DNA of 64,000 nt from an uncultured Desulfobacterales bacterium (GCA_964638145.1 CAZXAK010000007.1:151757-215756); one strand, 5' to 3'; shown: positions 24,490 through 38,741, counted from the first letter of the stretch. A program made the numbers and translations. The notes: generated from the letters alone by a model not told the origin.

Positions 24490-24868
24490 GGTTCCAAGTG
24501 TACCATTAAGCGCAAATCCTGCAATTCAAAATTTTCAGCGCTTCAAATCTGTTTTGCCGGTTAACATGCCGTTTTTAAATCAGGTTTTATGGGGGCGTTT
24601 GATATCCGGCCTGAATATATGCGCAAATGGCCTTTTGGGTCACCAGTCATAGCATATATAGTGGTTATATATAGTGGTTATACCTCCTCTTTCCATCTCT
24701 GGGAGTCTTGTTATGAGAGTAAGCTTTTCGGGTGTCCACATCTCCTAATTTGGGCAACAGGCTGATTTTCAGCGATATTTCCGGGCAAGGACAGCGGTCC
24801 TGCAAAGGACAAAGAATGGAATTCGGGGTCTTGAGCAAAAGTGTGTCAATTTTGTTCTTGCCACGCTT

Positions 24869-24891
24869 TTGTTGCAACATTGTTGTTGCAA
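24869..24891. promoter_or_regulatory. Upstream activator site for unit A: TGTTGCAACA palindrome plus adjacent TTGTTGCAA half-site
   Basis: TGTTGCAACA lies at 24870-24879, followed by TTGTTGCAA at 24884-24891 and GTTGCCACAA at 24899-24908. The site is about 155 bp upstream of the sigma-54 promoter. Confidence 0.6.
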
Positions 24892-25025
24892 GGTGAGGTT
24901 GCCACAAATATGTAGGAGTGCTACGCCCCATCTTTCATCTGTCATGTTTTTATAAGTGGCTGTAAAAACAATAAGTTAGGGCGATGCCATGGGGTGGCGC
25001 TGTTGTTGTTACATTTTAAGATGTT

Positions 25026-25041
25026 TGGCATGACTTATGCA
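25026..25041 (+). promoter_or_regulatory. sigma-54 promoter, unit A (TGGCATGACTTATGCA)
   Basis: GG 25027-28 and GC 25039-40 are in the exact 12-nt register, 78 nt upstream of ATG 25119. Confidence 0.75.
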
Positions 25042-25118
25042 TAAAAATATAGACGAATAAGGAAAGAAAAATAAAACAAAAAAATAAAACAACAACTTAG
25101 ATATGAAAGGAGATAGCC

Positions 25119-25328
25119 ATGAACACTACTACAAATATCAGAGATAGGGAACTCGTAAGGGGAAACGTCGATGTTGGAACCGAGGCCTCGAAGACAGCTC
25201 TCGGTGTGGGTCTTGGTCTTGCTGCTCTGGTTGGTCTTTGGGGTGTAGCCTGTTTGGTTGGCGGATTGGCCTCGGCAGGCGTTATCGATACAGTAGCCGG
25301 TTACCTGAGAGCCGTTACCGGTGTGTAA
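25119..25328 (+). CDS. 69-aa small membrane protein, paralogue A (unrecognised family; polar N-terminus plus glycine-zipper TM)
   Basis: MNTTTNIRDRELVRGNVDVGTEASKTALGVGLGLAALVGLWGVACLVGGLASAGVIDTVAGYLRAVTGV. The RBS is GAAAGGAGATAGCC-ATG. It has its own promoter and terminator, and five paralogues of identical length exist. Confidence 0.85.
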   Translation: MNTTTNIRDRELVRGNVDVGTEASKTALGVGLGLAALVGLWGVACLVGGLASAGVIDTVAGYLRAVTGV

Positions 25329-25406
25329 ATAGCCCAGCACATAGGAAGGTGAAGCGACGGTTACAATAAATACCCTCACCCCACAACATTCTCTCCATGC
25401 AGTACA

Positions 25407-25439
25407 AAGGCCGGTTGAAAGACCGGCCTTTTCTTTTTG
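25407..25439 (+). terminator. Rho-independent terminator, unit A
   Basis: AAGGCCGGT-TGAAAG-ACCGGCCTT followed by TTCTTTTT. Confidence 0.8.
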
Positions 25440-25515
25440 TTGCCCAAATATAGTGCCGGGCGCTTGTGAGGAGTGACAGGCAGTTCAAAACTACACATTT
25501 GATGCAAAATTATAG

Positions 25516-25549
25516 AAGCAACATTGGTGTTGCAACATATTTGTTGCGA
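25516..25549. promoter_or_regulatory. Upstream activator site for unit B
   Basis: AAGCAACA, GTGTTGCAACA (25527-25537) and TTGTTGCGA are phased about 11 bp apart, about 145 bp upstream of the promoter. Confidence 0.6.
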
Positions 25550-25669
25550 TATGCTGTCAAGGTTGGGGGACCGGGTGCAAAAGGAAGGGGTCTTTCCCTA
25601 AGTGGTGTAAAAAACAATAAAATCAAGTAGTTGTTTAAGGTAAAATGTTGTCTTTACAGCGTGCCATGT

Positions 25670-25685
25670 TGGCACGACATATGCA
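25670..25685 (+). promoter_or_regulatory. sigma-54 promoter, unit B (TGGCACGACATATGCA)
   Basis: GG 25671-72 and GC 25683-84 are in the 12-nt register. A perfect IHF-consensus-like AATCAAGTAGTTG lies between the activator site and the promoter (about 25620-25632). Confidence 0.8.
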
Positions 25686-25754
25686 TTTATATAAAAGCGA
25701 AATGGCAAACAACATATGATAATTTAATAGAAATATAAGAGAAAGGAGATAGCC

Positions 25755-25964
25755 ATGAACACCAATACAAATATAAAAGAAAGAGAATTGGTAAGGGAAA
25801 ATGTAAACATAGGAACCGAAACCTCCAAGACCGCGCTGGGAATCGGTCTTGCCCTTGCAGCCCTTACAGGTCTGTGGGGCGTTGCCTGCCTCATGGGTGG
25901 CCTTGCAACATCCGGGGTAGCTGGGGTGGTCACCGGTTACGTAAGGGCAGTGGCCGGGGTGTAA
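25755..25964 (+). CDS. 69-aa small membrane protein, paralogue B
   Basis: MNTNTNIKERELVRENVNIGTETSKTALGIGLALAALTGLWGVACLMGGLATSGVAGVVTGYVRAVAGV, with the same RBS block as units A and C. Confidence 0.85.
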   Translation: MNTNTNIKERELVRENVNIGTETSKTALGIGLALAALTGLWGVACLMGGLATSGVAGVVTGYVRAVAGV

Positions 25965-26038
25965 CTTAGAATCTCGCACAGGTAAAATTCCGTTACATAC
26001 TGAGACTGAGACAGCTAACTGTAGGGGCTGCCTCAAGA

Positions 26039-26070
26039 GGGCCGGATCAATTGATATCCGGCCTTTTTTT
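26039..26070 (+). terminator. Rho-independent terminator, unit B
   Basis: GGGCCGGAT-CAATTGAT-ATCCGGCC followed by TTTTTTT. Confidence 0.85.
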
Positions 26071-26255
26071 GTGGTGTAGGATACGATCTGGAAGACCCCG
26101 TGTCTCCCCGTGTCAAGTGATATCTATCCGCGGTTATCCAGTCATGCGCTAAACAGGGAATGGTTCCCGTATCTTGTCTGTTTCATTGCATTTTTTGTTA
26201 CCTGTAAAATATTGCCCTACGTTTTTGTTGCATTTTTGGGGGATGGCTACACTTA

Positions 26256-26265
26256 TGTTGCAACA
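26256..26265. promoter_or_regulatory. Upstream activator site for unit C (TGTTGCAACA)
   Basis: A perfect 10-bp palindrome about 138 bp upstream of the promoter. Extra half-sites are TTGTTGCAT (26225-26233) and TGTTGCGA (about 26356). Confidence 0.55.
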
Positions 26266-26392
26266 TGATCGTTGTTATGGAACCCGAATAGATACAAAGG
26301 CTGTCAACAGTATGGTTTTGAGGGTTTGTGGCGATAAAGTTTAATGAAAACAGTATGTTGCGATAGAGGTTTTTTTGATAAATAAATTTGTT

Positions 26393-26408
26393 TGGCACAT
26401 CATATGCA
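26393..26408 (+). promoter_or_regulatory. sigma-54 promoter, unit C (TGGCACATCATATGCA)
   Basis: GG 26394-95 and GC 26406-07 are in the 12-nt register. Confidence 0.8.
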
Positions 26409-26481
26409 ATATCAATAGGCAAGAAGGGAACGAAAGTGACATAACCACTAATTGACTGATGATAGTCGAAAGGAGATAGCC

Positions 26482-26691
26482 ATGAACACCACTACAAATA
26501 TCAAAGACAGAGAACTGGTTAGGGACAATGTTAATGTTGGTACTGAGGCGACAAAGACTGCTCTTGGAGTAGGAATTGGGATGGCCACCCTGGTAGGTCT
26601 GTGGGCCGTTGCCTGTCTCATTGGCGGAATTGCCTCTGCCGGCCTTATCGGGGCTGTGGCCGGTTACGTAAGAGCAGTGACGGGGATGTAG
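26482..26691 (+). CDS. 69-aa small membrane protein, paralogue C
   Basis: MNTTTNIKDRELVRDNVNVGTEATKTALGVGIGMATLVGLWAVACLIGGIASAGLIGAVAGYVRAVTGM. The start is set at ATG 26482, behind the conserved GAAAGGAGATAGCC block; the ORF track starts 30 nt upstream. Confidence 0.85.
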   Translation: MNTTTNIKDRELVRDNVNVGTEATKTALGVGIGMATLVGLWAVACLIGGIASAGLIGAVAGYVRAVTGM

Positions 26692-26750
26692 GTGTGTTAG
26701 GTAAAAAGGTGGGGAATGATATAGGTCATGCCTCACAATATTCCGGTAAG

Positions 26751-26783
26751 GGCCGATATAACAAAGTTATATCGGCCTTTTTG
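26751..26783 (+). terminator. Rho-independent terminator, unit C
   Basis: GGCCGATATAAC-AAA-GTTATATCGGCC followed by TTTTTG. Confidence 0.85.
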
Positions 26784-26959
26784 TTTAAGGAGTGCGTTGA
26801 GGTTGAGGGCGCGGCAAGGGACATAAGGGTATCATATAGAAGAGAATTTTGCCGGGGCAGGCTGCGAGTGATTAAAAACGGGGTGGTGGAGCAGGCTTGC
26901 ATGACCATTTCCCCTGATGGGCAGTGTGGGCTGGGGGGGGCAATGTGATGCCGGGTATC

Positions 26960-26983
26960 TGTTGCTACACTTTTGTTGCAACA
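26960..26983. promoter_or_regulatory. Upstream activator site for unit D
   Basis: TGTTGCTACA (26960-26969) and a perfect TGTTGCAACA (26974-26983), about 210 bp upstream of the promoter. Confidence 0.55.
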
Positions 26984-27182
26984 CAACTGTAGAAAAGGCA
27001 CGTATAGTGTGGTGGATTGCACTGGTAAGCGCTTAATGAGCAGAACGTGCGTCCGGAAAATATGTTTAAATTCTAACAGGCTGCGTTTCGTTGCTAAGGT
27101 GTGAAATTATTCCCATTTTTCTTTTGTATTTATCAGTGTGATTTCATGGTGTTGTATAGCCTGTCTGTTGTGCGGCGGATTT

Positions 27183-27198
27183 CGGCACAATCGTTGCA
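27183..27198 (+). promoter_or_regulatory. sigma-54 promoter, unit D (CGGCACAATCGTTGCA)
   Basis: GG 27184-85 and GC 27196-97 are in the 12-nt register, with TTGCA at -12. Confidence 0.7.
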
Positions 27199-27253
27199 GT
27201 TACTATATGCAAAACTACGAAGCAAAGGACAATAAATGAAAGGAGAAATAGCT

Positions 27254-27463
27254 ATGAGCGTTAATGTTGATATAAAAAATAGGGATAAGGTCAAAGAGAG
27301 TGTGGATGTTGGTGTTGAGGCATCTAAAACGGCGCTGGGGGTTGGTATAGCTCTTTCGGCACTGGTGGGGCTGTGGGCGGTTGCATGTCTCATCGGTGGA
27401 CTATCCTCATCGGGTGTTTTGGATACCATAAGAGGTTACATTAGTGCCGTAACCGGAATGTGA
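27254..27463 (+). CDS. 69-aa small membrane protein, paralogue D
   Basis: MSVNVDIKNRDKVKESVDVGVEASKTALGVGIALSALVGLWAVACLIGGLSSSGVLDTIRGYISAVTGM. The RBS is GAAAGGAGAAATAGCT-ATG; the ORF track starts 18 nt upstream. Confidence 0.85.
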   Translation: MSVNVDIKNRDKVKESVDVGVEASKTALGVGIALSALVGLWAVACLIGGLSSSGVLDTIRGYISAVTGM

Positions 27464-27513
27464 GCTGTATATTGATCTTTGCAGATTATTAGTGGACCTG
27501 AAGGAGGTAGAAA

Positions 27514-27807
27514 ATGGATAAGGGAACTGGCAAGATGGCAGGGAATATTGCCCTGGGGTTTGGCGCGCTCGTTGGGTTATGGGCTGTTTCTGCATTTGTA
27601 GGTGCAATTTATTCTGCAGGCGGTCAGGTGTCAGAAGTGATACGGGGATATATGGTTGCTACCGGTCTGATCACTCCGCTTCATAATCTGGTCGATTATT
27701 ATACGCACATCAAAGGAGTAGAATATCTCATCTGTGTAGCCTTCTTTGTGGTATTTCCTGTATTCTACAAATCGCTTTCAAGAGAGAAAAAAGCGGCGCG
27801 GGCTTGA
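27514..27807 (+). CDS. 97-aa divergent paralogue E with an extra C-terminal TM segment, co-transcribed with D
   Basis: Its core GNIALGFGALVGLWAVSAFVGAIYSAGGQVSEVIRGYMVATG aligns with the family core (GLW.V....G......G...V.GY..A.G). It continues with YLICVAFFVVFPVFY plus a basic tail. RBS GAAGGAGG. It starts 50 nt after the D stop with no promoter or terminator in between. Confidence 0.75.
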   Translation: MDKGTGKMAGNIALGFGALVGLWAVSAFVGAIYSAGGQVSEVIRGYMVATGLITPLHNLVDYYTHIKGVEYLICVAFFVVFPVFYKSLSREKKAARA

Positions 27808-27845
27808 TTCATAGGTAGCCTTATCACACTTCCCATCTTACCGCC

Positions 27846-27882
27846 AAGGCCGGGGCATCGCCACTCCGGCCTTTCCATTTTT
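27846..27882 (+). terminator. Rho-independent terminator, unit D-E
   Basis: AAGGCCGG-12 nt-CCGGCCTT followed by TCCATTTTT. Confidence 0.7.
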
Positions 27883-27898
27883 CAGAAACCGGTAGAGG

Positions 27899-28055
27899 GT
27901 ATCTGCTTACAGGGTATCACATCTACTATCTCGAAGTCTTACTTGCCTGTTGGGTACTTTTAAGTACAGGGAGTGTGTCTGCGTATCCCCCGCTTTGTAT
28001 CAGTCGCACGCTGTAAGTAGATACATCTCAGACAATTGTCCAATAATACCCGCAA
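27899..28055 (+). repeat. 157-bp interspersed structured repeat, copy A (second copy at 52053-52209)
   Basis: It aligns by eye along its whole length with 52053-52209, sharing blocks TTTGCCTG, TTTTAAGTACAGG, CTTGTATC, CAGATACAT.TCAGACA.TTGT and ATAATACCCG.AAA. An internal long-range inverted repeat pairs GTATCTGCTTACAG (27899-27912) with CTGTAAGTAGATAC (28011-28024). Confidence 0.7.
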
Positions 28056-28524
28056 AAAATCTTCTGAGGAGTTACGGTAGAGGGCATCTGGCAGATTATA
28101 AAAGAAGCGAGGCCCTTTGAGCTAGCTCTTGCCCCATAGTGTCACAATGGTCGTTCAGCCACGCCTTTGCTGCTGCCGCAACCGTAGAGTCAGTACAATA
28201 TCATTTGTGTCATATGGTTATGATTTCAATTTATCAATGAGGCGTCATTCCCGTTTGCCCATTCATTTGGTGTGCTGACGGGAATTGTTTGGTGGCCGAT
28301 GGCAAGCGCTGGTCCCTGCAAGACAGTAGAAGATATGGGCTTTTGACGGTTATGTGTTTGTCTGTTTCCTTGGAACCCCCAAAGTTGGTTTGATGTCCTG
28401 AGTGTGCTTTTCAGTTTAGAAAAGATGATTTTTGCGTGGATATTATTGTGTTTTTGCGGCCAGTTTTTTAAAAAAGCAAATAAAATCAGCAGGTGTATAT
28501 TTTATTTATTCTCATCAACAGTTG

Positions 28525-28534
28525 TGTTGCAACA
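28525..28534. promoter_or_regulatory. Upstream activator site for unit F (TGTTGCAACA)
   Basis: A perfect palindrome flanked by CAACAGTTG and GAATTGTTGAA, about 128 bp upstream of the promoter. Confidence 0.55.
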
Positions 28535-28651
28535 GAATTGTTGAAATTATATCATCATCAATCGCTATTCAGGTACATGTCATTTTAAATTTCTAAATAA
28601 AAAAACCTTATTACAGTAAGTTACTAAATTAGGGCACTCTGTTGGCAGATA

Positions 28652-28667
28652 TGGCACGAGTTATGCT
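28652..28667 (+). promoter_or_regulatory. sigma-54 promoter, unit F (TGGCACGAGTTATGCT)
   Basis: GG 28653-54 and GC 28665-66 are in the 12-nt register. Confidence 0.75.
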
Positions 28668-28785
28668 CTATAAATTATGACGGATTATAAAAGTAGATGT
28701 TAATGCTAATTCACAGAGCGTAATTAGTACATATGCTCAAATTAGTATGTAAGGCCATGACAATCTTTAATGAAAGGAGATGACC

Positions 28786-28995
28786 ATGAACGCGAATGTT
28801 AATGCAAAGGGCGATGAGCTTGTTAGGGACAGCGCTGATGTAGGCAGTGAAGCTTCAAAGGCGGCTCTCGGTACAGGAATCAGTCTGGCAGCGTTGATCG
28901 GTCTTTGGGCTGTAGCATGTCTTATTGGAGGATTGGCGGCCGCAGGTCTGATTGGTGTGGTAACTGGATACATCAAGGCTGTAATTGGCATGTAG
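28786..28995 (+). CDS. 69-aa small membrane protein, paralogue F
   Basis: MNANVNAKGDELVRDSADVGSEASKAALGTGISLAALIGLWAVACLIGGLAAAGLIGVVTGYIKAVIGM. The second ATG (28786) gives the family-standard 69 aa and RBS spacing (GAAAGGAGATGACC-ATG). Confidence 0.8.
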   Translation: MNANVNAKGDELVRDSADVGSEASKAALGTGISLAALIGLWAVACLIGGLAAAGLIGVVTGYIKAVIGM

Positions 28996-29590
28996 AATTT
29001 TTATAAGGGGGTATTCCTTATATTGATTCTGAATAGCATGAGATAAGGTTAGGGTGAGGAAATATGATGAGGCATTTAAAGTTGCCATATTCAAAGGGCC
29101 TGTAGTTACCTGAGAGGGGGATATCACGAAAGTTGTTGCGTATATGCCGTGGCTGTAGGTGTTATAGATAGAGGCAGAAAAGGGGTTAATGCGGCATATA
29201 AAGCAGGAGGATTAACCTGGTTGCAGAGAGGGAAGGCATACCGTCGCTCAGGATAATTTGTGCCTTGTTGTGTTGTCATGTATAACGCACCATTTGAAAC
29301 TGCAGGATTAACCAATTTTCCATTTTTTAACTCGTAGCAAAGTCAAAAAAGACTGATCAACTCCATTGGCGTGCTTAAAGTGGACGTTTGAGCCAAAAAA
29401 AATGGAGTAAAAGAAGAGATAGGGTAAGCTGAATGTATGTGTGTATCAGTCTTTCACCCCTGAATTAATCTTTCAAACTGTCCACCACATGGGTTGTGGA
29501 TATTTGAAAATTATCCATACCTTCAAGTTACTTCACTGGACGATCTACACCTAAAGGATACAAAAAATTCAATAAATTATACTGTGCTAA

Positions 29591-30763
29591 CTAACGGGTT
29601 TTGGTGCGGAGCACTTCTGAATTTTCAGTGACAGAACCGTTTATCACTGCCTTAACCCTGATATAATATGTAGTCCTTGGTTTAAGTCCTTTTATGCGAT
29701 ATCGCAGGACATCACCAACGGACTTGTCCTTAATGCCGTTATGGTATACGGAAAAGTCCGGTGTCGTGGACAGGTCTATATGATATTCTACATCGCCTGT
29801 ACAAAGTTTGTCCCAGCAGACAATGATATCGGTTTTATGTCTCCTGTATGTCTTTAGGCCTGAAACCCGCATCATGTCAGTGATATCTGCAACATGGATT
29901 ATTCCGTTGCCAAGCCACGCGATACGATTACGGCTAATCACAGGACTGTGATCTTCTGCTTCATTGTCAGTAATCTGTGAAAAGCCATTAGCCCTGCTGT
30001 ATACGAATATTTCACCGTCATGGCCATCCCTGCGCACCATGACTGCCTGTGTCCCGTCTGATGAGTTGCTTCTGTTGAACTTAAGGTGTCTTGGTGCAGG
30101 TCTGGGGCCTGGATGCCGTTTCCCAATATAGTAAATCCACTGGGACAGTTTGTGATTGGAGGTTTCCTGCAGCCAAATAATCCTGGATGAATCTATGCGG
30201 GGATCGCTGCAGTCAGAGCGAGTATGTGATATGGTCCGCGGGCCTTTACCATGAGTGGCATCATAAAACATGACCTTGCCTGCCTCATATGACCTATCCA
30301 CTTTTTGAGACGTCCACACAACATGTCCGTTGGCAATCCGGGGGGTATAGTTGTCACAAAAATCTAAGGGAGATATGCGTTTTGCTCCGGTTTGTCCCTG
30401 TAAATCAAAGAGGTATATCTGGTTTTCCCCGCCATTGGTATGTTTCTGCCATACCACGAAATTGCCATCGGTCTGGGGGAGAAGATCGTTGTCATCATCG
30501 TCGGTTATCTGAATGACATTGAATGTGTTGAGGTCGCAGTAGAATATTTCAGTGTCATTACCCCCTGACGTGGAGCCGGGAAGGCCACCTTTGGCTTCCC
30601 AGACCAAGGCTGTGCCATGTATCATGGGAGATTCGTAATCTGAAATGGTGGTCAGTCCGCCGCTATTCCATATCTCTCTGCTGGCGTCTGCCCAGAGGTT
30701 TGGTGAGGCAAAAGATAGGGTCAAAATTAATGTAACTGTAATATAAAGGATTCCTGATTTCAT
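29591..30763 (-). CDS. Secreted beta-propeller-like repeat protein with C-terminal fibronectin type III domain
   Basis: Signal peptide MKSGILYITVTLILTLSFASPNLWA. There are repeated blades ending in hydrophobic-VW motifs (GTALVWE, GNFVVWQ, GHVVWTS, SRIIWLQ, NRIAWLG). The C-terminal FN3-like sequence is RYRIKGLKPRTTYYIRVKAVINGS. Confidence 0.65.
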   Translation of the reverse strand: MKSGILYITVTLILTLSFASPNLWADASREIWNSGGLTTISDYESPMIHGTALVWEAKGGLPGSTSGGNDTEIFYCDLNTFNVIQITDDDDNDLLPQTDGNFVVWQKHTNGGENQIYLFDLQGQTGAKRISPLDFCDNYTPRIANGHVVWTSQKVDRSYEAGKVMFYDATHGKGPRTISHTRSDCSDPRIDSSRIIWLQETSNHKLSQWIYYIGKRHPGPRPAPRHLKFNRSNSSDGTQAVMVRRDGHDGEIFVYSRANGFSQITDNEAEDHSPVISRNRIAWLGNGIIHVADITDMMRVSGLKTYRRHKTDIIVCWDKLCTGDVEYHIDLSTTPDFSVYHNGIKDKSVGDVLRYRIKGLKPRTTYYIRVKAVINGSVTENSEVLRTKTR

Positions 30764-30879: not shown

Positions 30880-32841
30880 TTACCATGTGATGGGGTCACT
30901 GCCACCATATGCACCAAGGTCATTTCCATCATCTCCGCTTGCAATGGCAGGGGAGCCGGGCTGGAGGTGGTAATCTCCATTGGACCTGTCCACAAACAGT
31001 GGATCTGCAAATATTTCATTGGGATTTCCTGCAAAGTTTGGAGGAGAACCGGTATAGCAAGCGCCAGTCTGAGCGGGAACAAAGGTGTCCCGGCTATTGT
31101 TGCCATAGTATAGGTTATAATCTCTCAGAGTGCTGCAGACAGCATCATGGACTCCGGCCTTCATGTTCCATGCAGTGATATTGTTCTTTATGACATGGGG
31201 GTTCTGGGACGAATTCCACTGGGGCCGGTCATAGAAGTTTCGTGTAAGGCCTGTAGTGGGATCAGTTGTTATGGAGATGTCGTCATAGACTATTCCTCCA
31301 CCTCTATCTTCATCGAATTCGGTTACATGAGAACCATTGCTTACCACTGTGTTGTTACTGATTTCTGTTATTCCCCATTCCGCACTGAATGGCGTATAAG
31401 GGCTTATACTGTTCCCTGAAAAGCGTATGCCGCCCCTGGTGTTGCTGTAGACAAGATTGTTGGTTATGACCCCTGATGCGTGGTCAAGGCGCATGCCCGC
31501 CCGGTTTTCATAAATTTTGTTCCGCCTTATGGTGAGCTGTACCGGTCCGTTGGCCGTATTGAAACCCACACTGGTAGGCAGACTGTCAGGGTCAGGCGGA
31601 AAGGTGCCGGACCAGTCTCCTGTAAAGATTCCGGCAGCACCTGTGTGATTGTGTATGTCGTTGTCTGTGATAGTGGCTGAGCATGCATTGAAAAAGGCTA
31701 TGCCCGAACGTGTATTTTCGTAAATCTGATTTCCAGTTATGGTGATTGTGCCGGTAACATGATCAAGTACAGATATACCCGCCCGTGTATTTTCATGGAT
31801 ATAGTTGCCTGTTATAGTAACAGGTTGAGAGCTTGCGTAGCCCGCCACTTTTGAGTTTCGGAATACGAAGAAGGTGATTCCTGCAATGCTGTTGCTATAT
31901 ATATCATTGTTGGGACCAATGGTGACGGTTGATGTCCCTCCGATATTAATTCCCGCCTGGCCATTGTCGTGTATGGAGTTTCCTGATATGTGCGGGCTTA
32001 CACTGGACGTGTCGATTAACAGGATGCCCGCTCGCCTGTTGCCCTGGATGGTGTTGTTTTCAATGCTTACCTGATCAATGGAATAGAGGCGTATGCCGCT
32101 TCCTTTTACTGAACTGCCTACACCGTTGTTGCGGATAAGGTTTCCATCGCTGACAGTGCTGCCCCCGATGATTACCCGGTTGGATGATCCGCTATCGCCT
32201 GCCAGGTATATTCCGGCAGTCCCACAGTCCTCAATGGTGTTACCCTGTATGGTAAGGGTGCTGTTGCTGATGGTCCCGCCCCATTTGGTGGTTATCCCTG
32301 AATAGGCTATGTCATATATGGTGTTTCCTGTAAAGGTAGCCACAACCTGGCCATTCAGTCTGATACCACCCCGCAGATAGGACCCCCCATTTATGACACA
32401 GTTTTTGACAGATACGTTGGTACACGAGTCCTTAATGATGATCCCTGCTTTGAGTCTGGTGCTAGAAGAGCCGTCAAGAACAAAACCGTCCAACGTACAG
32501 TCGTCTGCGAGAGAAAATTTGACGATTGTCTTGAAAGATGAGGTGACTACAGGTTTTTCTGCTTCTGCAGCCAGTACATCCACCCCGGTCTTCATGTATA
32601 TCCTTTCTGCATAGGTTCCAGGATGGACAAGTACATCATCACCGCTTGCTGCTGCTGTGATGGCATCATATATACGACAGTAAGGATTTGCCTCTGTTCC
32701 TGAACCTGTGGAAGGACAGGTGTCGTCATCAACATGTATCTCTGCGGACCATGAAGAAGAGGAGAGGCAGAGCACGAGGGCGGCACATAAAAGACCTATG
32801 TAAAGGATGGTCAAGTCCATGCATTCTTCTTTTGATATCAT
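30880..32841 (-). CDS. Secreted right-handed parallel beta-helix repeat protein (pectate-lyase/NosD-like fold)
   Basis: The signal peptide is LTILYIGLLCAALVLCLSSSSWSA. More than 10 PbH1-type repeats are present (GNTIYD..YSGI, GNTIEDCGTAGIYL, NNTIQGNRRAGILL, GNSIHDNGQAGINI, GNYIHENTRAGISV, GNQIYENTRSGIAF, RNKIYENRAGMRL, NNLVYSNTRGGIRF). The start is either 32841 or ATG 32820. Confidence 0.8.
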   Translation of the reverse strand: MISKEECMDLTILYIGLLCAALVLCLSSSSWSAEIHVDDDTCPSTGSGTEANPYCRIYDAITAAASGDDVLVHPGTYAERIYMKTGVDVLAAEAEKPVVTSSFKTIVKFSLADDCTLDGFVLDGSSSTRLKAGIIIKDSCTNVSVKNCVINGGSYLRGGIRLNGQVVATFTGNTIYDIAYSGITTKWGGTISNSTLTIQGNTIEDCGTAGIYLAGDSGSSNRVIIGGSTVSDGNLIRNNGVGSSVKGSGIRLYSIDQVSIENNTIQGNRRAGILLIDTSSVSPHISGNSIHDNGQAGINIGGTSTVTIGPNNDIYSNSIAGITFFVFRNSKVAGYASSQPVTITGNYIHENTRAGISVLDHVTGTITITGNQIYENTRSGIAFFNACSATITDNDIHNHTGAAGIFTGDWSGTFPPDPDSLPTSVGFNTANGPVQLTIRRNKIYENRAGMRLDHASGVITNNLVYSNTRGGIRFSGNSISPYTPFSAEWGITEISNNTVVSNGSHVTEFDEDRGGGIVYDDISITTDPTTGLTRNFYDRPQWNSSQNPHVIKNNITAWNMKAGVHDAVCSTLRDYNLYYGNNSRDTFVPAQTGACYTGSPPNFAGNPNEIFADPLFVDRSNGDYHLQPGSPAIASGDDGNDLGAYGGSDPITW

Positions 32842-33692: not shown

Positions 33693-34094
33693 TTATTTTT
33701 CTTCTGGTGCCGCCATAATGCGTGCAATAGGTTCAAAGGCCTCACAGTCCATGCACATCTCTATTTTTTCTCTCGGCGAGTTGGGTAGGCATTTTTCACA
33801 GAAGGTGCCGTTTATGAACCAGCACAGTTTCCCTACGTTGAATTCCCAGGCCGGGCATCTGTACTTTACCTCCTCAGAGCATTTCTTTACATCCCAGCAT
33901 GGCTTCAGGTGTCCATTTATCCCCTTCATACGGGATATGAAAAAGTATATCTGCCTTTCAACATAGACAGGTACGGTCCGCCATCCCTGTTCGTAGCTGG
34001 AGATGGTCTTCTGAGAGGTCCCCAACAGCTCTGCCATTTGTTTCTGTGTCCTGCCGAGGATTTTTCTGGCATGTGCAAATTCTTTATTGGTCAT
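33693..34094 (-). CDS. XRE-family HTH regulator fused to a Cys-rich C-terminal domain with two CW motifs
   Basis: The N-terminal HTH is FAHARKILGRTQKQMAELLGTSQKTISSYEQG. The C-terminal domain is CWDVKKCSEEVKYRCPAWEFNVGKLCWFINGTFCEKC...CMDCEAF, with 9 Cys residues. It is divergent from the cytochrome operon. Confidence 0.75.
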   Translation of the reverse strand: MTNKEFAHARKILGRTQKQMAELLGTSQKTISSYEQGWRTVPVYVERQIYFFISRMKGINGHLKPCWDVKKCSEEVKYRCPAWEFNVGKLCWFINGTFCEKCLPNSPREKIEMCMDCEAFEPIARIMAAPEEK

Positions 34095-34179
34095 AAGTTT
34101 AATTAAAATTAAAAAGTTATTGGTATAACCAATAGTTATTAGAATTTAATTGTAAGTTAAAGGTTGATTAAAAAATCAG

Positions 34180-34207
34180 TTGACAATGCTCAGGTAATAA
34201 GATAATT
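34180..34207 (+). promoter_or_regulatory. Putative sigma-70 promoter of the cytochrome operon
   Basis: TTGACA (34180-85), a 16-nt spacer and ATAATT (34202-07). Confidence 0.4.
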
Positions 34208-34215
34208 GATAGAGG

Positions 34216-34230
34216 TACCACATTGTGGTA
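34216..34230. promoter_or_regulatory. Perfect 7-1-7 palindrome TACCACA-T-TGTGGTA, candidate operator
   Basis: It lies just downstream of the putative -10 and about 50 nt before ATG 34283. A second inverted repeat, TATTGG-TATAA-CCAATA, lies at about 34114-34130. Confidence 0.4.
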
Positions 34231-34282
34231 TTAAATGCAACTTGTGATTTACGGACTCAGGAAGATTTAGGAGGAATCGAGG

Positions 34283-35629
34283 ATGAAAAAAGCAATTTTC
34301 AAGGGACTTTCGGTAATTTTTTTCTGTCTAACTGTTCCCATGTTTCTGGTTTCAGTGGCGGCCTCAGAGGATCTGTCTGATAGCAGTGAGTGTATTTCCT
34401 GCCATACAGACCTTGAGGAGATGGATGATTACGGGGCTGAGGCAGCAAGTGCCGCGGCCGCGGTGGCCGGGTGAGGCGTTTCTGCGCCCCAGGTCAGGGG
34501 GCGTGATACCTTTGGCGTAGCCAAGGACTTTCTTGATACACCGCATGGAGAACTTGGGTGCCGGTATTGCCATAAGGGCAAGAACGTTGACGATGAGGAG
34601 GAGGCCCATGAAGGGCTCATAAGGGATCCTTCCGATGCCAACGGCGGTGGAGTATGTGCTGAGTGCCATGAGGAGATCACGGAGACTTTCAAAACCTCTA
34701 TGCATTATACTCTAAATGGTATCATGGACATAGTAAAGACCATATCTTCTCCTCACAAGATGCAGGATACCCTCTTGCCTGAGGCATGGGCACTGGATTG
34801 TGCCGAGTGTCACGCAAGTTGTGGTAGCTGTCATGTGGCATGGCCTCACGTATCCAAGGGTGGACTTATTGACCGGCACAGGTTTCAGAAAAAACCTCCG
34901 ATGGAGAAGACCTGTTTTGGCTGTCATGGTTCCCGTTTTGCCGGTGAATATGTCGGTTTTCTTGGTGAGAATGCAGACGTACATTACTCAAAAGGCCAGA
35001 TGGAGTGCTACGACTGCCACAAGGGCTCCCAGTTCCATGAAACCAAGCCAAAGGGGGCCAAGCGCTACTATGCCACAGAGACTCCACGCTGTGAAAACTG
35101 CCATCCAGATGCAGTGGCAGGCCGTTCGAGCATCCCAATGCATAATGCACACGGCAAGGATGTGCTGGCATGTCAGGTATGTCATGCAACCACCTACTTC
35201 AACTGTCAGAATTGCCATGTTTCGCTTGATGTGAAGAAAAAGGGCGAGATAAAGGTCATTTTCCCGTCAGATCCACTTTATACTTTCAAGATCGGCAAGA
35301 ATATTGATGTAAGCCCCAACAATCCATACAAGTACAATCTTGTCCGACATTCACCCATGAAGAAGGACTCTCTTGCCTCTTTGCGTTATTTCCAGAAGGT
35401 GCTCAAGGGAAAACCAGGTCCTGAGGATCTGATTTCCAACTGGGATGCACTTCCCACATGGAATTCTGCAGCGGTCCATAGCATACAGAGAAAGACTCCA
35501 CAGAATCAGTCCTGTAATTCATGCCATGGCGTGAAAAAGCTCTTTCTTACCAAGGATGACATTAAACCAGATGATCCAAAGGCCAACTATAAGGTAGCTG
35601 TGGACGTTCCACCTGCGATTAAAAAGTAG
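34283..35629 (+). CDS. Secreted 11-haem c-type cytochrome with a predicted selenocysteine (UGA at 34472-34474, residue 64)
   Basis: ORFs 34283..34474 and 34700..35629 are in the same frame. The 75 codons between them have no stop and encode CRYCH and CAECH. The N-terminal part has a signal peptide and CISCH, while the downstream ORF alone has none. There are 11 CXXCH in total, and a SECIS-like hairpin follows the TGA. Confidence 0.7.
34485..34503 (+). other. Bacterial SECIS-like hairpin (CGCCCC-AGGUCAG-GGGGCG)
   Basis: A 6-bp GC stem begins 11 nt after the UGA. The apical loop carries GGUC at +21 to +24 from the U of UGA, compared with +22 to +25 in the E. coli fdhF SECIS as I recall it. Confidence 0.6.
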
Positions 35630-35656
35630 GGAGATGTAGAGGAAAGGAGTGGTCTC

Positions 35657-36622
35657 ATGAATAAGTACGCGTATTTGTTGATGTTGCTGGTTGTGGGAGT
35701 GGTTCTCGCCGCTGTTATAGCTCCTGGGATATCCAGGGCAAGGACTGCTGACCCCCTTGTGTCCACAGACTGGCTGAACAAGCATATGGGGGACAAGTTA
35801 GTGGTTGTTGTGGATATCAGGACCGGGGCAAATTATGCCTTTGCGCATATACCTCATGCGGTTTCTGTGCCATACACAAATATCGAACCAAAGAATGAAA
35901 AGGGTCTGTTCATGCTTCCATCCACCAAGAAGATGACAGAGCTGTTCCGCAAGGCCGGAGTGAACAGAAAATCCCATGTCATTGTATATGGCCATGGAAA
36001 TACGGTCAGTGACGCATCCAAGGCCGCTGCCACTTTCTGGGCACTTAAGGCCATGGGGCACAGGAATGTCTCAATGCTGGATGGGGGTTTTACCAAGTGG
36101 ACTTTCGAGGGGCGTGTAGTAACCAAAGAAGTCCCTAAGGTCAAGAAGGGTAACTTCAAGGCGGTGGTGGACGCCTCCCTTATTGCAGACATGGATGAAG
36201 TGGCAAAGGCAGTAAAGAGCAGGCGGGCTGTTCTGGTTGATGCAAGGAACTCCATTCAGTATTTTGGACATGAAAAGCGGGCAGATGTGACCTGTTTCGG
36301 TCATATTCCCGGTGCAATAAATCTGCCTGCAGATTTCCTGTCCAATGCTGGCATAAACCGTGCTCCTGCCACTGTCAAGTCCAAGGATGATCTGCGCAAG
36401 ATGGTACGTGGAGTCGGTATTCCCGACAAGAAGTCAGTGCCAATCATTGTCTACTGTAATACTGCTCAGCTTGCAGGGCTCAACTATCTCGTTTTAAAGG
36501 ACCTGCTGGGCTACACCAATGTAAAGGTATTTGATGGTTCCATGCTGGAGTATTGTAACCTCAATGGGAAGTTGCCTGTTGAGCGGTTTTCCTGGAGCCT
36601 GAATGCACCACACGGCAAGTAG
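35657..36622 (+). CDS. Periplasmic tandem-rhodanese sulfurtransferase (SseA/thiosulfate sulfurtransferase-like), active-site Cys present
   Basis: Signal peptide MNKYAYLLMLLVVGVVLAAVIAPGISRA. There are two rhodanese domains; the C-terminal catalytic loop is IVYCNTAQLAG. Confidence 0.85.
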   Translation: MNKYAYLLMLLVVGVVLAAVIAPGISRARTADPLVSTDWLNKHMGDKLVVVVDIRTGANYAFAHIPHAVSVPYTNIEPKNEKGLFMLPSTKKMTELFRKAGVNRKSHVIVYGHGNTVSDASKAAATFWALKAMGHRNVSMLDGGFTKWTFEGRVVTKEVPKVKKGNFKAVVDASLIADMDEVAKAVKSRRAVLVDARNSIQYFGHEKRADVTCFGHIPGAINLPADFLSNAGINRAPATVKSKDDLRKMVRGVGIPDKKSVPIIVYCNTAQLAGLNYLVLKDLLGYTNVKVFDGSMLEYCNLNGKLPVERFSWSLNAPHGK

Positions 36623-36641
36623 CCTGGAAGGAGGAAGAGTT

Positions 36642-37598
36642 ATGTATATGAAAAAGAGTATGATTATTGCTGCCATAGTAGCGGTATCCATGCTGTTCAC
36701 CGCCTACTGCGTCGGTGCAGCCCCAAAGGTTTCGTCGGACGGGTTGGTTACCGTGGAGTGGCTTTCAAAACATATGGATGACAGGGGCGTGGTTATCCTG
36801 GATGTCCGGACATTTCCTAAATATATGAAAAATCATATACCGGGTGCCATAAGGGCCTTTGGTCCCTGGCGTCTTACCAATGAAAAATTCGTTGGATTCA
36901 TGGCCCCTCCGGTTGGAGAGCTTGAGGAAATGTTGAGGGAGTTTGGTGTATCAAATGATTCCCTGGTCATTATCTACGATCAGGGCATGACATCAAGTGA
37001 TACGGCAAAGAGTGCCAGGGCACTCTGGACATTACATATGCTTGGCCATACCAATGTTGCGATTCTCGATGGAGGGTTCAATGCATGGGAGCAGAAGGAA
37101 TTGCCCTTGACGGCAACGCCGGCCATACCGGTCAGAGGCAATTTTACAGCAAAACCGGTTGCCAAAAAGGCCATAAGCCTTGAAGAGGTACAGAAGAAGC
37201 TGGGTTCCAAGGGTACCATTTTCCTGGATTGCAGGATACCTGCCGAACATTTCGGGCACGAGAAAAAGAGCAATATAGCCCGCTTCGGTCATCTGCCAGG
37301 TTCACTGTTGATGCCAGCCTCATTCCTGACAATTGGTGGACAGAACTTCTCTCCGGCCTATCTCCGAAAAAAGGATGAGCTGCGGCAGATGGCTTCAGGT
37401 GTGGGGCTGCCAAACAATTCCGGAGCCGAAATAGTTGTTTACAGCAATACTGGAGAAGAGGCCGCATTGTGTTATTTCGTGCTAAATAATATGCTGGGTT
37501 ATAATAATGTAAGGTTGTTTGACGGTTCTGTACTGGAGGCTGCCAAGGCAAAGGATATTGCCATGGTTAGATACTCCTGGGGCTGGAATGACAGATGA
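36642..37598 (+). CDS. Periplasmic tandem-rhodanese paralogue with Ser replacing the catalytic Cys
   Basis: The signal peptide is MYMKKSMIIAAIVAVSMLFTAYCVGA. It is collinear with the upstream rhodanese, but the catalytic loop reads VVYSNTGEEAA. GGAGG lies 7 nt before ATG 36642. Confidence 0.8.
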   Translation: MYMKKSMIIAAIVAVSMLFTAYCVGAAPKVSSDGLVTVEWLSKHMDDRGVVILDVRTFPKYMKNHIPGAIRAFGPWRLTNEKFVGFMAPPVGELEEMLREFGVSNDSLVIIYDQGMTSSDTAKSARALWTLHMLGHTNVAILDGGFNAWEQKELPLTATPAIPVRGNFTAKPVAKKAISLEEVQKKLGSKGTIFLDCRIPAEHFGHEKKSNIARFGHLPGSLLMPASFLTIGGQNFSPAYLRKKDELRQMASGVGLPNNSGAEIVVYSNTGEEAALCYFVLNNMLGYNNVRLFDGSVLEAAKAKDIAMVRYSWGWNDR

Positions 37599-37666
37599 TT
37601 TTGGATAAGGGTATTCGAATACAGTAACTAAAAAAAACAGGGGGCACAACAGGGAGGTAGTTTTAA

Positions 37667-38539
37667 ATGTGGAAGAATAGTTATGTTATATTTGCTGCTG
37701 TTGTGGCATTTGTGCTGGTAGCAGTATCTGCTGCGCAGGCAGGACCACCACTTACAAATGCCGAGGGTGTGGGAGGTATAGCGCTGAATCCTGTTGCCTA
37801 TGTGGCAAATCCCCTCAAGGAGGGGGACAAGGGACTGTTCGGTGCTGGAATCGTATCCAAACCCCAGTTGGGTGCGTGGTATATTGGACTGAACGAGAGT
37901 CACGTCAACTGGTTCACCACTGGAGGTAATATCTCATTCTTCAACCGGGTTGAGATCGGTTATTCTCATGAGTTCGTGGATGTGGAAGGGCTGCAGAACA
38001 TCAACAAGGATAACTTCAGTATCAAACTCAACCTGATCAAGGAAAATGACTTCGGCATGAGCTTTTTGCCTGCGTTCTCCTTTGGTACCATCTACAAGAA
38101 TACGGATGCCGATGACAGTCTCGACCTGAAGGATTCAGACGACTGGGATTTCTACTTTGTTGCCACAAAGATGATAACAGCTCTGCCAGTGCCTGTGATG
38201 CTCAATGCAGGGACACTCGGTACCAAGGGATTTGTCCGCGGTGTGCTGGGGTTTGGCGATGACAGGCAGTGGACGTTTTTTGGCAATATCGACGTGGTGC
38301 TCCTGAAGAAGTTCATTCTGGGGTATGAGTATCAGCAGGATGTTGATGTTGGAAACGTATTCAAGGGAGAGAGTGGGGCAGACCATTCCACCCATTCCAT
38401 GTGGGAAATCCATCTTGCCTACATGCACAACGAGCATCTGATGCTGGTTGCCTCCTATGCGTATACAGGCGACAAGGATGCGGTCAGTCAGGCATCGTTC
38501 GGTAACGCACTGGTACTTTCGGCACAGTACGCGTTTTGA
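37667..38539 (+). CDS. Outer-membrane beta-barrel protein (porin-like, unknown family)
   Basis: The signal peptide is MWKNSYVIFAAVVAFVLVAVSAAQA. Alternating amphipathic beta-strand patterns run throughout, and the C-terminus ends in the OMP signature LVLSAQYAF. Confidence 0.7.
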   Translation: MWKNSYVIFAAVVAFVLVAVSAAQAGPPLTNAEGVGGIALNPVAYVANPLKEGDKGLFGAGIVSKPQLGAWYIGLNESHVNWFTTGGNISFFNRVEIGYSHEFVDVEGLQNINKDNFSIKLNLIKENDFGMSFLPAFSFGTIYKNTDADDSLDLKDSDDWDFYFVATKMITALPVPVMLNAGTLGTKGFVRGVLGFGDDRQWTFFGNIDVVLLKKFILGYEYQQDVDVGNVFKGESGADHSTHSMWEIHLAYMHNEHLMLVASYAYTGDKDAVSQASFGNALVLSAQYAF

Positions 38540-38685
38540 TGGCCTTCCTCTGACATCTGTTTATGGTGAAGGATGGGAGAGGCGTGCTACATGGTGGTTT
38601 TCGTGCGATGCTATCCATCCTTCGTGGGTCCTGGTTAAATCAGGGGAAGTGAATCAGTAATCTGTTGTTTGCTAAGTAAAAAAAA

Positions 38686-38721
38686 ACAGGTACAGGAGTG
38701 CCCCCGCCTGTACCTGTTTTT
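38686..38721. terminator. Bidirectional rho-independent terminator
   Basis: ACAGGTACAGG-10 nt-CCTGTACCTGT is flanked by an A-run on the left and a T-run on the right, between convergent genes. Confidence 0.8.
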
Positions 38722-38741
38722 GGTTGTGGGGCATGCAGTTT

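Follow-up and report, generated by a model that had tools for sequence, protein, structure and literature searches.

A candidate selenocysteine-containing multihaem cytochrome encoded with exported rhodaneses in an uncultured Desulfobacterales bacterium

Introduction

In the Sud/Psr system of Wolinella succinogenes, a periplasmic rhodanese feeds polysulfide sulfur to the membrane-bound molybdopterin reductase Psr. Geobacter sulfurreducens carries MccSep (ExtKL, GSU2937-2936), a periplasmic pentahaem selenoprotein that functions as a polysulfide reductase and is needed for the respiration of elemental sulfur (S0), and whose selenocysteine (Sec), Sec325, adjoins a His/Cys-ligated haem (PMC13510729). 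The gene for MccSep is accompanied by those for the rhodanese ExtH and the porin-like protein ExtI (PMC5877670). Some members of the Otr family are also listed as selenoproteins, and a catalogue of prokaryotic selenoproteins from May 2026 contains only three Sec cytochromes, namely ExtKL, the GSU2204 family, and the Otr type (PMC13188914). Here we describe a gene module at positions 33693-38539 of a 64,000-nucleotide stretch of DNA (hereafter the window) from an uncultured Desulfobacterales bacterium (GCA_964638145.1 CAZXAK010000007.1:151757-215756), in which the first of four co-directional genes appears to encode an 11-haem c-type cytochrome with a single Sec residue.

As far as sequence analysis goes, it is established that this cytochrome is a selenoprotein whose UGA codon is read as Sec. 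The Sec site appears to define a large selenoprotein family that is invisible in present annotation and that the original prediction for this locus had missed, along with the close functional analogue ExtH/ExtI/MccSep of Geobacter (PMC13510729). The module seems to be a non-homologous counterpart of the MccSep system, with the same parts list but with parts that are not orthologous. We favor, with somewhat more confidence than doubt, a model in which a divergent redox- or sulfur-sensing repressor controls a four-gene operon encoding a periplasmic sulfane-sulfur oxidoreductase built around this previously unrecognised selenoprotein.

The in-frame UGA codon of the cytochrome gene

Coordinates are counted from the first letter of the window, and genes were called by listing and translating open reading frames (ORFs). 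The genes of the predicted operon and the elements that bear on Sec insertion, including a hairpin resembling a selenocysteine insertion sequence (SECIS), are as follows.

34283-35629, + strand: predicted 11-haem c-type cytochrome selenoprotein of 448 amino acids (aa), in a single frame with one TGA.
34472-34474, + strand: putative UGA Sec codon in a G-U-G motif (...AAVAG-U-GVSAPQ..., where U is Sec).
34484-34504, + strand: SECIS-like hairpin beginning 9 nucleotides (nt) after the UGA, with a 7-bp stem (GCGCCCC/GGGGCGU) and the loop AGGUCAG.
35657-36622, + strand: tandem rhodanese 1, with PF00581 twice and Cys267 in the loop CNTAQLAG.
36642-37598, + strand: tandem rhodanese 2, with PF00581 twice and Ser replacing the catalytic Cys.
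37667-38539, + strand: DUF3034 outer-membrane beta-barrel, matching PF11231.

Translation of the cytochrome reading frame yields 11 CXXCH motifs and a single in-frame TGA, which confirms the earlier description of a Sec-multihaem cytochrome with 11 haem motifs. The predicted protein begins with a signal peptide and the haem-1 motif CISCHT, followed by an Ala/Gly-rich linker, Sec64, and a 10-haem core with a beta domain. When one genome per species was scanned, at least 547 loci of the cytochrome family were located; 80 of these were fetched, and 77 of the 80 span the Sec site. Nearly all of these 77 reconstructed relatives have a uniform N-terminal plan (signal peptide or lipobox, CxxCHT for haem 1, a linker of 20-30 residues, and Sec), and a total of 11 CXXCH motifs is usual among them. 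In 67 of the 77 the TGA falls in the very same alignment column, in nine others it is displaced by one or two codons, and L076 is the only locus with a sense codon (TTT) at the site. In the relatives, the motif around the Sec codon is G-U-G/A.

Alignments from tblastn run through the TGA and cover query residues 1-448. A search of proteins returned 307 relatives, nearly all of which cover only what follows the TGA, or about 84% of the query, and this coverage is the signature of gene callers halting at a recoded UGA. The only signal peptide of the cytochrome sits on the N-terminal part, before the TGA. The downstream part lacks an export signal and therefore would be unable to mature alone as a c-type cytochrome, and in the window it offers no ATG for 75 codons, a distance that extends past two haem motifs.

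A simpler possibility is that the TGA is a genuine stop, in which case the locus would carry two genes, one for a 63-aa secreted one-haem peptide and another for a separate 10-haem cytochrome. Every public gene call indeed splits or shortens the gene, and an Rfam scan over the whole window returned only a tRNA and no matching SECIS family. Nevertheless, we find a true stop codon scarcely credible and have rejected it. Not only does the downstream part lack a signal peptide and a nearby ATG, but amino-acid conservation is unbroken through the codon, a covarying hairpin follows it, Cys occupies the same column in some relatives, and selA and selB adjoin the cytochrome gene in some loci.

The hairpin lies 9-11 nt after the UGA in almost every relative, with a stem of 6-8 bp and G/U-containing loops. 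Equivalent hairpins were found in 75 distinct sequences, and in 68 of these the 30-nt segment starting 9 nt past the UGA folds better than 95% of such segments from the same gene. The stems of individual clades differ yet stay complementary (GCCCCUC/GAGGGGC, GCGCCGG/UCGGCGC, GGCUCC/GGAGCC, and GCCCGC/GCGGGC). RNAalifold gave no consensus structure for a gapless alignment of the 75 sequences because the register of the hairpin shifts by 1-3 nt between clades. Covariation was evaluated on the named structure, using 44 sequences from distant clades. In this test, 82% of cells are paired compared to 57% in shuffles, and there are 75 double-sided changes compared to 30±4, a value that 0 of 500 shuffles reach. 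Controls in which the structure was slid along the sequence are at most 52% paired.

An exhaustive profile search with the cytochrome family gave 205 clusters (50% identity) at E<=1e-30. Of the 150 best cluster representatives, 77 are too short to include the Sec site, and in 15 distant ones Cys occupies precisely the Sec column, as in ...GEG-C-GG... of P0288 and P0297. We interpret this column as a classical Sec/Cys pair. In other full-length relatives, the Sec position holds Tyr, Phe, or Trp or cannot be aligned (P0088, L076:3446, and some cluster representatives), and all of these may belong to branches that are functionally diverged and non-catalytic.

The genomic context of some relatives also includes genes for Sec incorporation. 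In Sphaerochaetaceae, the gene order is rhodanese, selA, selB, cytochrome, resB, ccsB, and this island matches TIGR00474 (selA) with 452 bits, TIGR00475 (selB) with 286 bits, and TIGR03144 with 254 bits. It was located at L087:4352-12117 (Sphaerochaetaceae) and at L035:203-6910. The presence of Sec machinery, cytochrome-c maturation, and an apparent single client together suggests a transferable, self-sufficient cassette. In the 64-kb window, no selA, selB, selD, or tRNA-Sec gene was found, and the sole tRNA there is tRNA-Val.

Distribution and annotation of the family

Members of the cytochrome family are found in Desulfobacterota, Nitrospirota, Spirochaetota, Bacillota, and Chloroflexota. 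All public entries that we saw are shortened, and they are named 'hypothetical', 'cytochrome c3 family', or, by KEGG Orthology transfer, 'thiosulfate/3-mercaptopyruvate sulfurtransferase'. We found no publication that recognises this family as a selenoprotein. The family is also relevant to selenoproteome catalogues and to marker-gene surveys of the sulfur cycle.

Most of its hosts disproportionate or reduce sulfur or are related to sulfate reducers. Cultured hosts are Dissulfurirhabdus thermomarina SH388, which disproportionates S0 and sulfite, Dethiobacter alkaliphilus AHT1, Anoxynatronum buryatiense, and Thermanaerothrix solaris. The Dethiobacter homologue is DealDRAFT_1917, located beside a gene for a rhodanese (1918). 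In the published listing, DealDRAFT_1917 has 10 haems and the same Pfam matches but lacks a signal peptide (PMC10376724), and in this annotated state it is a truncated form. The same study called it SirA/Otr-like and reported that it is the only such cytochrome to be up-regulated on thiosulfate versus ferrihydrite (PMC10376724). Dethiobacter reduces S0 and thiosulfate even though it lacks psr, dsr, and sat, and the cytochrome family is a candidate answer to how this organism reduces sulfur or thiosulfate without psr or dsr (PMC5609068).

Comparison with described multihaem cytochromes

The resemblance to MccSep extends over several features. Both are periplasmic multihaem c-type cytochromes with a helical haem domain and a beta domain, both have one UGA codon, read or predicted to be read as Sec, that is followed by a SECIS hairpin, and both genes are split or shortened by gene callers. 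In each system an exported rhodanese and an outer-membrane beta-barrel are encoded alongside, and each occurs mainly in sulfur-cycling Desulfobacterota and Nitrospirota. However, the ExtKL model NF040886 does not match the window cytochrome at E<=0.01, and a comparison of the family profile with PDB chains 9wt8/9wt9 is insignificant (E 0.33, 13 bits). The window cytochrome has 11 haems whereas MccSep has five, and its Sec64 is near the N-terminus in G-U-G, whereas the Sec of MccSep is near the C-terminus, within an immunoglobulin-like domain, in D-G-U-P. Furthermore, MccSep has a conserved Cys that ligates haem 2, which has no equivalent in the window cytochrome. The accompanying proteins differ as well, in that the window rhodaneses are tandem proteins of the thiosulfate/3-mercaptopyruvate sulfurtransferase type that score below the ExtH cut-off, and the barrel is a DUF3034 protein with about 12 strands rather than ExtI. 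The lack of a match to NF040886, the E-value of the profile comparison, and the different haem number and Sec position led us to reject membership in MccSep/ExtKL.

Scans of Pfam and NCBIfam with the cytochrome gave only generic matches to cytochrome-c3/c7/c554 motifs, and NCBIfam has no family for it apart from an 18-bit brush with ExtM. The best profile matches to solved structures cover partial stretches confined to haem-motif blocks. These are 1sp3 (E 4e-8), which we take to be the octahaem tetrathionate reductase (Otr) of Shewanella, 6i5b (E 8e-7), presumably the Fe(III) reductase OcwA, and NrfA (2vr0; about 1e-3). With a smaller full-length profile (21 sequences), these similarities weaken and the match to Otr is lost, and therefore we treat the relation to Otr as remote. 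A study of Dethiobacter did place its homologue deep-branching beside Otr/SirA (PMC10376724). However, the window cytochrome does not match TIGR04315, carries 11 haems rather than 8 or 9, and shows no CXXCK motif or Lys-ligation signature. We rejected Otr membership on the first two of these grounds and because the similarity is only partial. The original prediction stated that the module could not be matched to the Sox, Psr/Phs, Otr, or Mcc gene sets, and this holds. Likewise, the database searches did not assign the cytochrome to any characterised family outside sulfur metabolism, an outcome that had been named beforehand as one that would speak against a role in sulfur or selenium redox chemistry.

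An AlphaFold2 (AF2) model of cytochrome residues 65-448 has a predicted local distance difference test (pLDDT) score of 89.5 and a predicted template modelling (pTM) score of 0.86. Foldseek found no match to this model at E<=1e-3 among PDB entries released to April 2026, a search for which the poor secondary structure content of multihaem folds must be kept in mind. Ten His residues outside the haem motifs are invariant in the family (H88, 109, 141, 199, 234, 252, 287, 290, 356, and 399), as is Met207. Since only ten invariant distal His residues are available for eleven haems, the distal position of one haem would be vacant, taken by a ligand other than His, or conceivably taken by Sec. Arg218 and Arg355 are also invariant and are candidates for anion binding.

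The rhodaneses and their linkage to the cytochrome

A family scan identified two PF00581 stretches in each rhodanese, and the two proteins are paralogues with 38% identity. The best solved relative of rhodanese 1 is 1uar (E 3e-33). Its catalytic Cys267 is located in IVYCNTAQLAG and is kept in 32 of 32 orthologues. In contrast, rhodanese 2 keeps the rhodanese fold and has lost the catalytic residue, with Ser at this position (VVYSNTGEEAA) in the window protein and in 30 of 32 orthologues. Domain scan and alignment thus bear out the proposal that one tandem rhodanese has the catalytic Cys and that the other has Ser in its place.

ExtH, modeled by NF040901, is the second-best NCBIfam match of both rhodaneses, with 56.9 and 56.4 bits. 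The cut-off of this model is 200 bits, and ExtH membership was rejected on that basis (57 bits versus 200). Because ExtH is annotated as a 'selenite/tellurite reduction operon rhodanese', its rank among the matches raises the possibility that the module encodes a reductase of selenite, tellurite, or another chalcogen oxyanion for detoxification or respiration, with rhodaneses that handle selenium. MccSep also reduces selenite, although less well than polysulfide (PMC13510729), and ExtI was first tied to the reduction of selenite and tellurite (PMC5877670). We regard this function as quite improbable, considering that the scores of 57 and 56 bits are far under the cut-off, that polysulfide is the preferred and physiological substrate of MccSep (PMC13510729), and that organisms which disproportionate or reduce sulfur, together with relatives of sulfate reducers, make up most of the hosts. 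In addition, the Dethiobacter homologue responds to thiosulfate (PMC10376724).

The association between rhodanese and cytochrome genes is widespread. In the close clade (>=63% identity, L001-L032), the order cytochrome, rhodanese 1, rhodanese 2 occurs in every locus. Beyond this clade, the outcome depends on the search method. When the window's own rhodaneses were used as tblastn queries, 39-40 of the 80 loci were detected and the divergent rhodaneses of other phyla were missed, whereas a hidden Markov model (HMM) of the rhodanese domain detected 61 and then 65. Thus, 65 of the 80 loci have a rhodanese ORF on the same strand within 6 kb of the cytochrome, and the rhodanese is missing in only two of the 67 loci that have at least 5 kb on both sides. 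The number of rhodanese domains ranges from one (L088) through two (Dethiobacter, L072) to four (Thermanaerothrix, L062), and fusions between cytochrome and rhodanese are present in P0047, P0088, and L039. The conserved core of the module is therefore the cytochrome and its rhodanese or rhodaneses, which are almost always neighbors.

This linkage also bears on the idea that the protein is a generic extracellular or periplasmic electron-transfer cytochrome, used for example in Fe(III) reduction, and that the rhodaneses are incidental or regulatory neighbors. Remote profile similarity to 6i5b and to multihaem wires such as 3ov0 would be consistent with such a role, and both Dethiobacter and Anaerolinea are iron reducers. 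Even so, we judge it very improbable, given that the rhodanese linkage persists through five phyla and includes fusions, that an invariant Sec points to catalysis beyond electron transfer, and that levels of the Dethiobacter homologue on thiosulfate exceed those on ferrihydrite (PMC10376724).

The outer-membrane barrel

The last gene of the operon had been proposed to encode a beta-barrel ending in YAF, and this is supported. The protein matches Pfam DUF3034 (PF11231) with 62.3 bits (cut-off 25), AF2 models it as a beta-barrel with about 12 strands (pLDDT 89.7), and its C-terminus reads ...SAQYAF. Its N-terminal segment is conserved. The best Foldseek matches of the model are FapF (2e-8), NanC/KdgM, and OmpG. 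A DUF3034 barrel occupies the same operon position in L001, L002, L004, and L083.

Proposed function of the module

The cytochrome is probably a periplasmic Sec-dependent reductase that acts on sulfane sulfur of the polysulfide or thiosulfate type and is fed by rhodanese, in parallel with MccSep, ExtH, and ExtI of Geobacter. The up-regulation of the Dethiobacter homologue on thiosulfate is the one experimental hint of this function. As in Sud/Psr, a periplasmic rhodanese would serve as the sulfane-sulfur carrier for a respiratory polysulfide reductase. However, the presumed reductase encoded in the window is a soluble Sec-multihaem cytochrome, and its rhodaneses are a tandem-domain pair with one active and one inactive member. 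In the mechanism that we envision, the DUF3034 barrel would pass soluble polysulfide or thiosulfate through the outer membrane, and rhodanese 1 would take up the sulfane sulfur as a persulfide on Cys267, with its Ser paralogue, rhodanese 2, serving as a non-catalytic partner or adaptor. The selenolate of Sec64, on a Gly/Ala-rich tether between the one-haem N-terminal module and the 10-haem core, might then attack the S-S bond. Electrons brought by the haem chain from the periplasmic cytochrome or quinol pool would reduce the Se-S adduct and release sulfide. The same machine might be run oxidatively in sulfide oxidisers and disproportionators.

The cytochrome family is probably a second, independent kind of selenium-dependent enzyme for sulfur respiration. 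If true, selenium-dependent multihaem sulfur reductases have arisen at least two times, and a rhodanese and an outer-membrane channel were enlisted on each occasion. A more specific and tentative proposal, which we consider possible but doubtful, is that an 11-haem G-U-G selenocytochrome acting on rhodanese-bound persulfide is the missing periplasmic or extracytoplasmic reductase of S0/polysulfide or thiosulfate in sulfidogens without psr or dsr, such as Dethiobacter, and perhaps catalyzes the first step of sulfur disproportionation in Dissulfurirhabdus and Desulfobulbales. Because the protein has 11 haems, 10 conserved distal His residues, and no spare Cys, we propose that Sec could be a swinging-arm nucleophile in a protein-to-protein Se-S relay with the rhodanese Cys, or could be an axial selenolate ligand of one haem. 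We know of no natural c-type cytochrome for which either arrangement has been described.

The module might instead work mainly in the oxidative direction, passing electrons from sulfide, polysulfide, or thiosulfate to the periplasmic cytochrome pool in the manner of TsdA or SoxAX, either in sulfide oxidation or in the oxidative branch of disproportionation. Desulfobulbaceae or Desulfurivibrionaceae and disproportionators are numerous among the hosts, and the authors of the MccSep study relate its reaction to the reverse of TsdA/SoxAX (PMC13510729). Moreover, two periplasmic rhodaneses are reported to be very highly expressed in Desulfurivibrio alkaliphilus during sulfide oxidation and disproportionation (PMC13047784), and these may be orthologues of rhodaneses 1 and 2. 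Nonetheless, the family is present in fermenters and in S0 or thiosulfate reducers that have no known sulfur-oxidation pathways (Dethiobacter, Anoxynatronum, Sphaerochaeta, and Anaerolineae), the sole expression datum for a family member comes from thiosulfate reduction, and no Cys for a His/Cys-ligated haem is conserved. For these reasons, we find a mainly oxidative role unlikely.

Several observations dampen our enthusiasm for a rhodanese-fed sulfane-sulfur reductase. In some distant relatives, the position of Sec64 is occupied neither by Sec nor by Cys. No non-motif Cys is invariant in the family, and hence there is no Cys partner for Sec like that of MccSep, whose chemistry is therefore not simply transferable. 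The basic loop residues that are a feature of thiosulfate sulfurtransferases are missing from the rhodanese loop CN(T/S)xQxAG. Elsewhere, the DUF3034 family stands alone, away from any cytochrome. With regard to an electron partner, the operon does not encode a quinol dehydrogenase, and a cytochrome b together with a multihaem cytochrome is found nearby in only one Bacillota locus. Many hosts are fermenters (Sphaerochaeta and Anaerolineae) whose sulfur physiology is poorly known. Finally, the choice of substrate and direction draws on neighboring genes, taxa, and one proteomic comparison. What endures of the original proposal of an exported sulfur or selenium redox module is that its genes are co-transcribed, that their products are exported, and that a Sec-multihaem cytochrome is joined to sulfurtransferases, whereas we infer the substrate and the direction (oxidation or reduction, sulfur or selenium).

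The Bacillota locus (L088:11183-15161, chromosome CP045798) contains genes for the cytochrome, a single-domain rhodanese, an ArsR-type regulator, ccsA/resB, a second multihaem cytochrome, and a cytochrome b (Ni_hydr_CYTB). The last two could constitute the quinol-linked electron donor that the window operon lacks.

Regulator, operator, and transcription signals

The remaining features of the module are predicted to be involved in the control of its expression.

33693-34094, - strand: regulator with an XRE-type helix-turn-helix (HTH) and a C-terminal 8-Cys two-CW domain, divergent to the operon.
34180-34206, + strand: putative promoter, with -35 TTGACA at 34180-34185, -10-like GATAAT at 34201-34206, and a 15-nt spacer.
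34216-34230, no strand: operator-like palindrome TACCACATTGTGGTA, between the promoter and the ribosome-binding site of the cytochrome gene.
38678-38722, no strand: bidirectional intrinsic terminator, with an A-run, an 11-bp stem, a 10-nt loop, and a T-run.

The regulator matches PF01381 HTH_3 (E 4.6e-7) and the NCBIfam model NF045718 two_CW_domain (44.7 bits, cut-off 35), and its CW motifs are PCW and LCW. It had been described as a divergent XRE HTH regulator with a 9-Cys two-CW domain. The HTH and both CW motifs are present, but the number of Cys residues is eight rather than nine. Orthologues are divergent beside the cytochrome in L001, L002, L004, and L083, and in L011 the gene is rearranged and located downstream of the rhodaneses. 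True two-CW regulators were recovered by jackhmmer in only five loci. A larger set of 22 loci from BLAST single-linkage was rejected, as the jackhmmer results indicate that it arose by chaining of generic HTH proteins.

The palindrome TACCACATTGTGGTA occurs once in the window, with 0 occurrences expected by chance. A 15-nt sequence, TACCACAnnGTGGTA, is present at the same place upstream of the cytochrome in L001, L002, L003, L004, and L083/L084, and was found in none of the other 83 loci. The TACCACAnnGTGGTA palindrome is probably the operator of the divergent XRE/two-CW regulator, which would respond through its eight Cys residues.

The barrel and the two-CW regulator accompany the cytochrome only in the window and in L001, L002, L004, L011, and L083. 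The last of these is the cultured D. thermomarina SH388, which has the whole five-gene layout, including the TGA. Thus, the expectation that four families would be syntenic in other genomes is borne out family-wide for the cytochrome and its rhodanese or rhodaneses, but the barrel and the two-CW regulator are confined to a small subclade. In L004, a gene for a histidine kinase with a C-terminal Cys-rich two-CW domain (L004:8939-10513) lies 3.3 kb downstream of the module. Since both this kinase and the XRE regulator of L004 have the domain, two-CW looks like a reusable sensor module.

The four operon genes are co-directional, with the predicted gaps of 27, 19, and 68 nt when the ATG at 36642 is taken as the start of rhodanese 2. 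As had also been proposed, all four products have the features of signal peptides as judged by eye, namely a basic N-terminus, a hydrophobic core, and an AxA-type site. The TTGACA and GATAAT elements form a putative promoter of the cytochrome operon. A consensus promoter scan called no + strand promoter for this operon, whereas the TTGACA (34180-34185) is kept in four of five aligned intergenic regions from related loci, such that the proposed promoter is supported by conservation and not by the scan. The strong bidirectional terminator expected downstream of the barrel can be read from the sequence, with 38686-38696 paired with 38707-38717 to form the 11-bp stem and with the A-run and T-run on either side. 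It was partly detected by a scan, on the - strand.

Surroundings of the module

The genes flanking the module are housekeeping or unrelated genes, which encode a secreted beta-helix protein, a sugar epimerase, PBP1A, and tRNA synthetases, and the module is therefore self-contained. Directly upstream of the regulator, at 30880-32841 on the - strand, is the gene for a secreted 653-aa right-handed beta-helix/NosD-like protein. Related loci do not share this gene as a conserved neighbor, and it is therefore probably unrelated to the module. At 24500-29600, a region of about 5 kb that gave no Rfam match and no significant tandem repeats contains only short ORFs (<=133 aa), and the GC content decreases to 0.41 at 28-30 kb.

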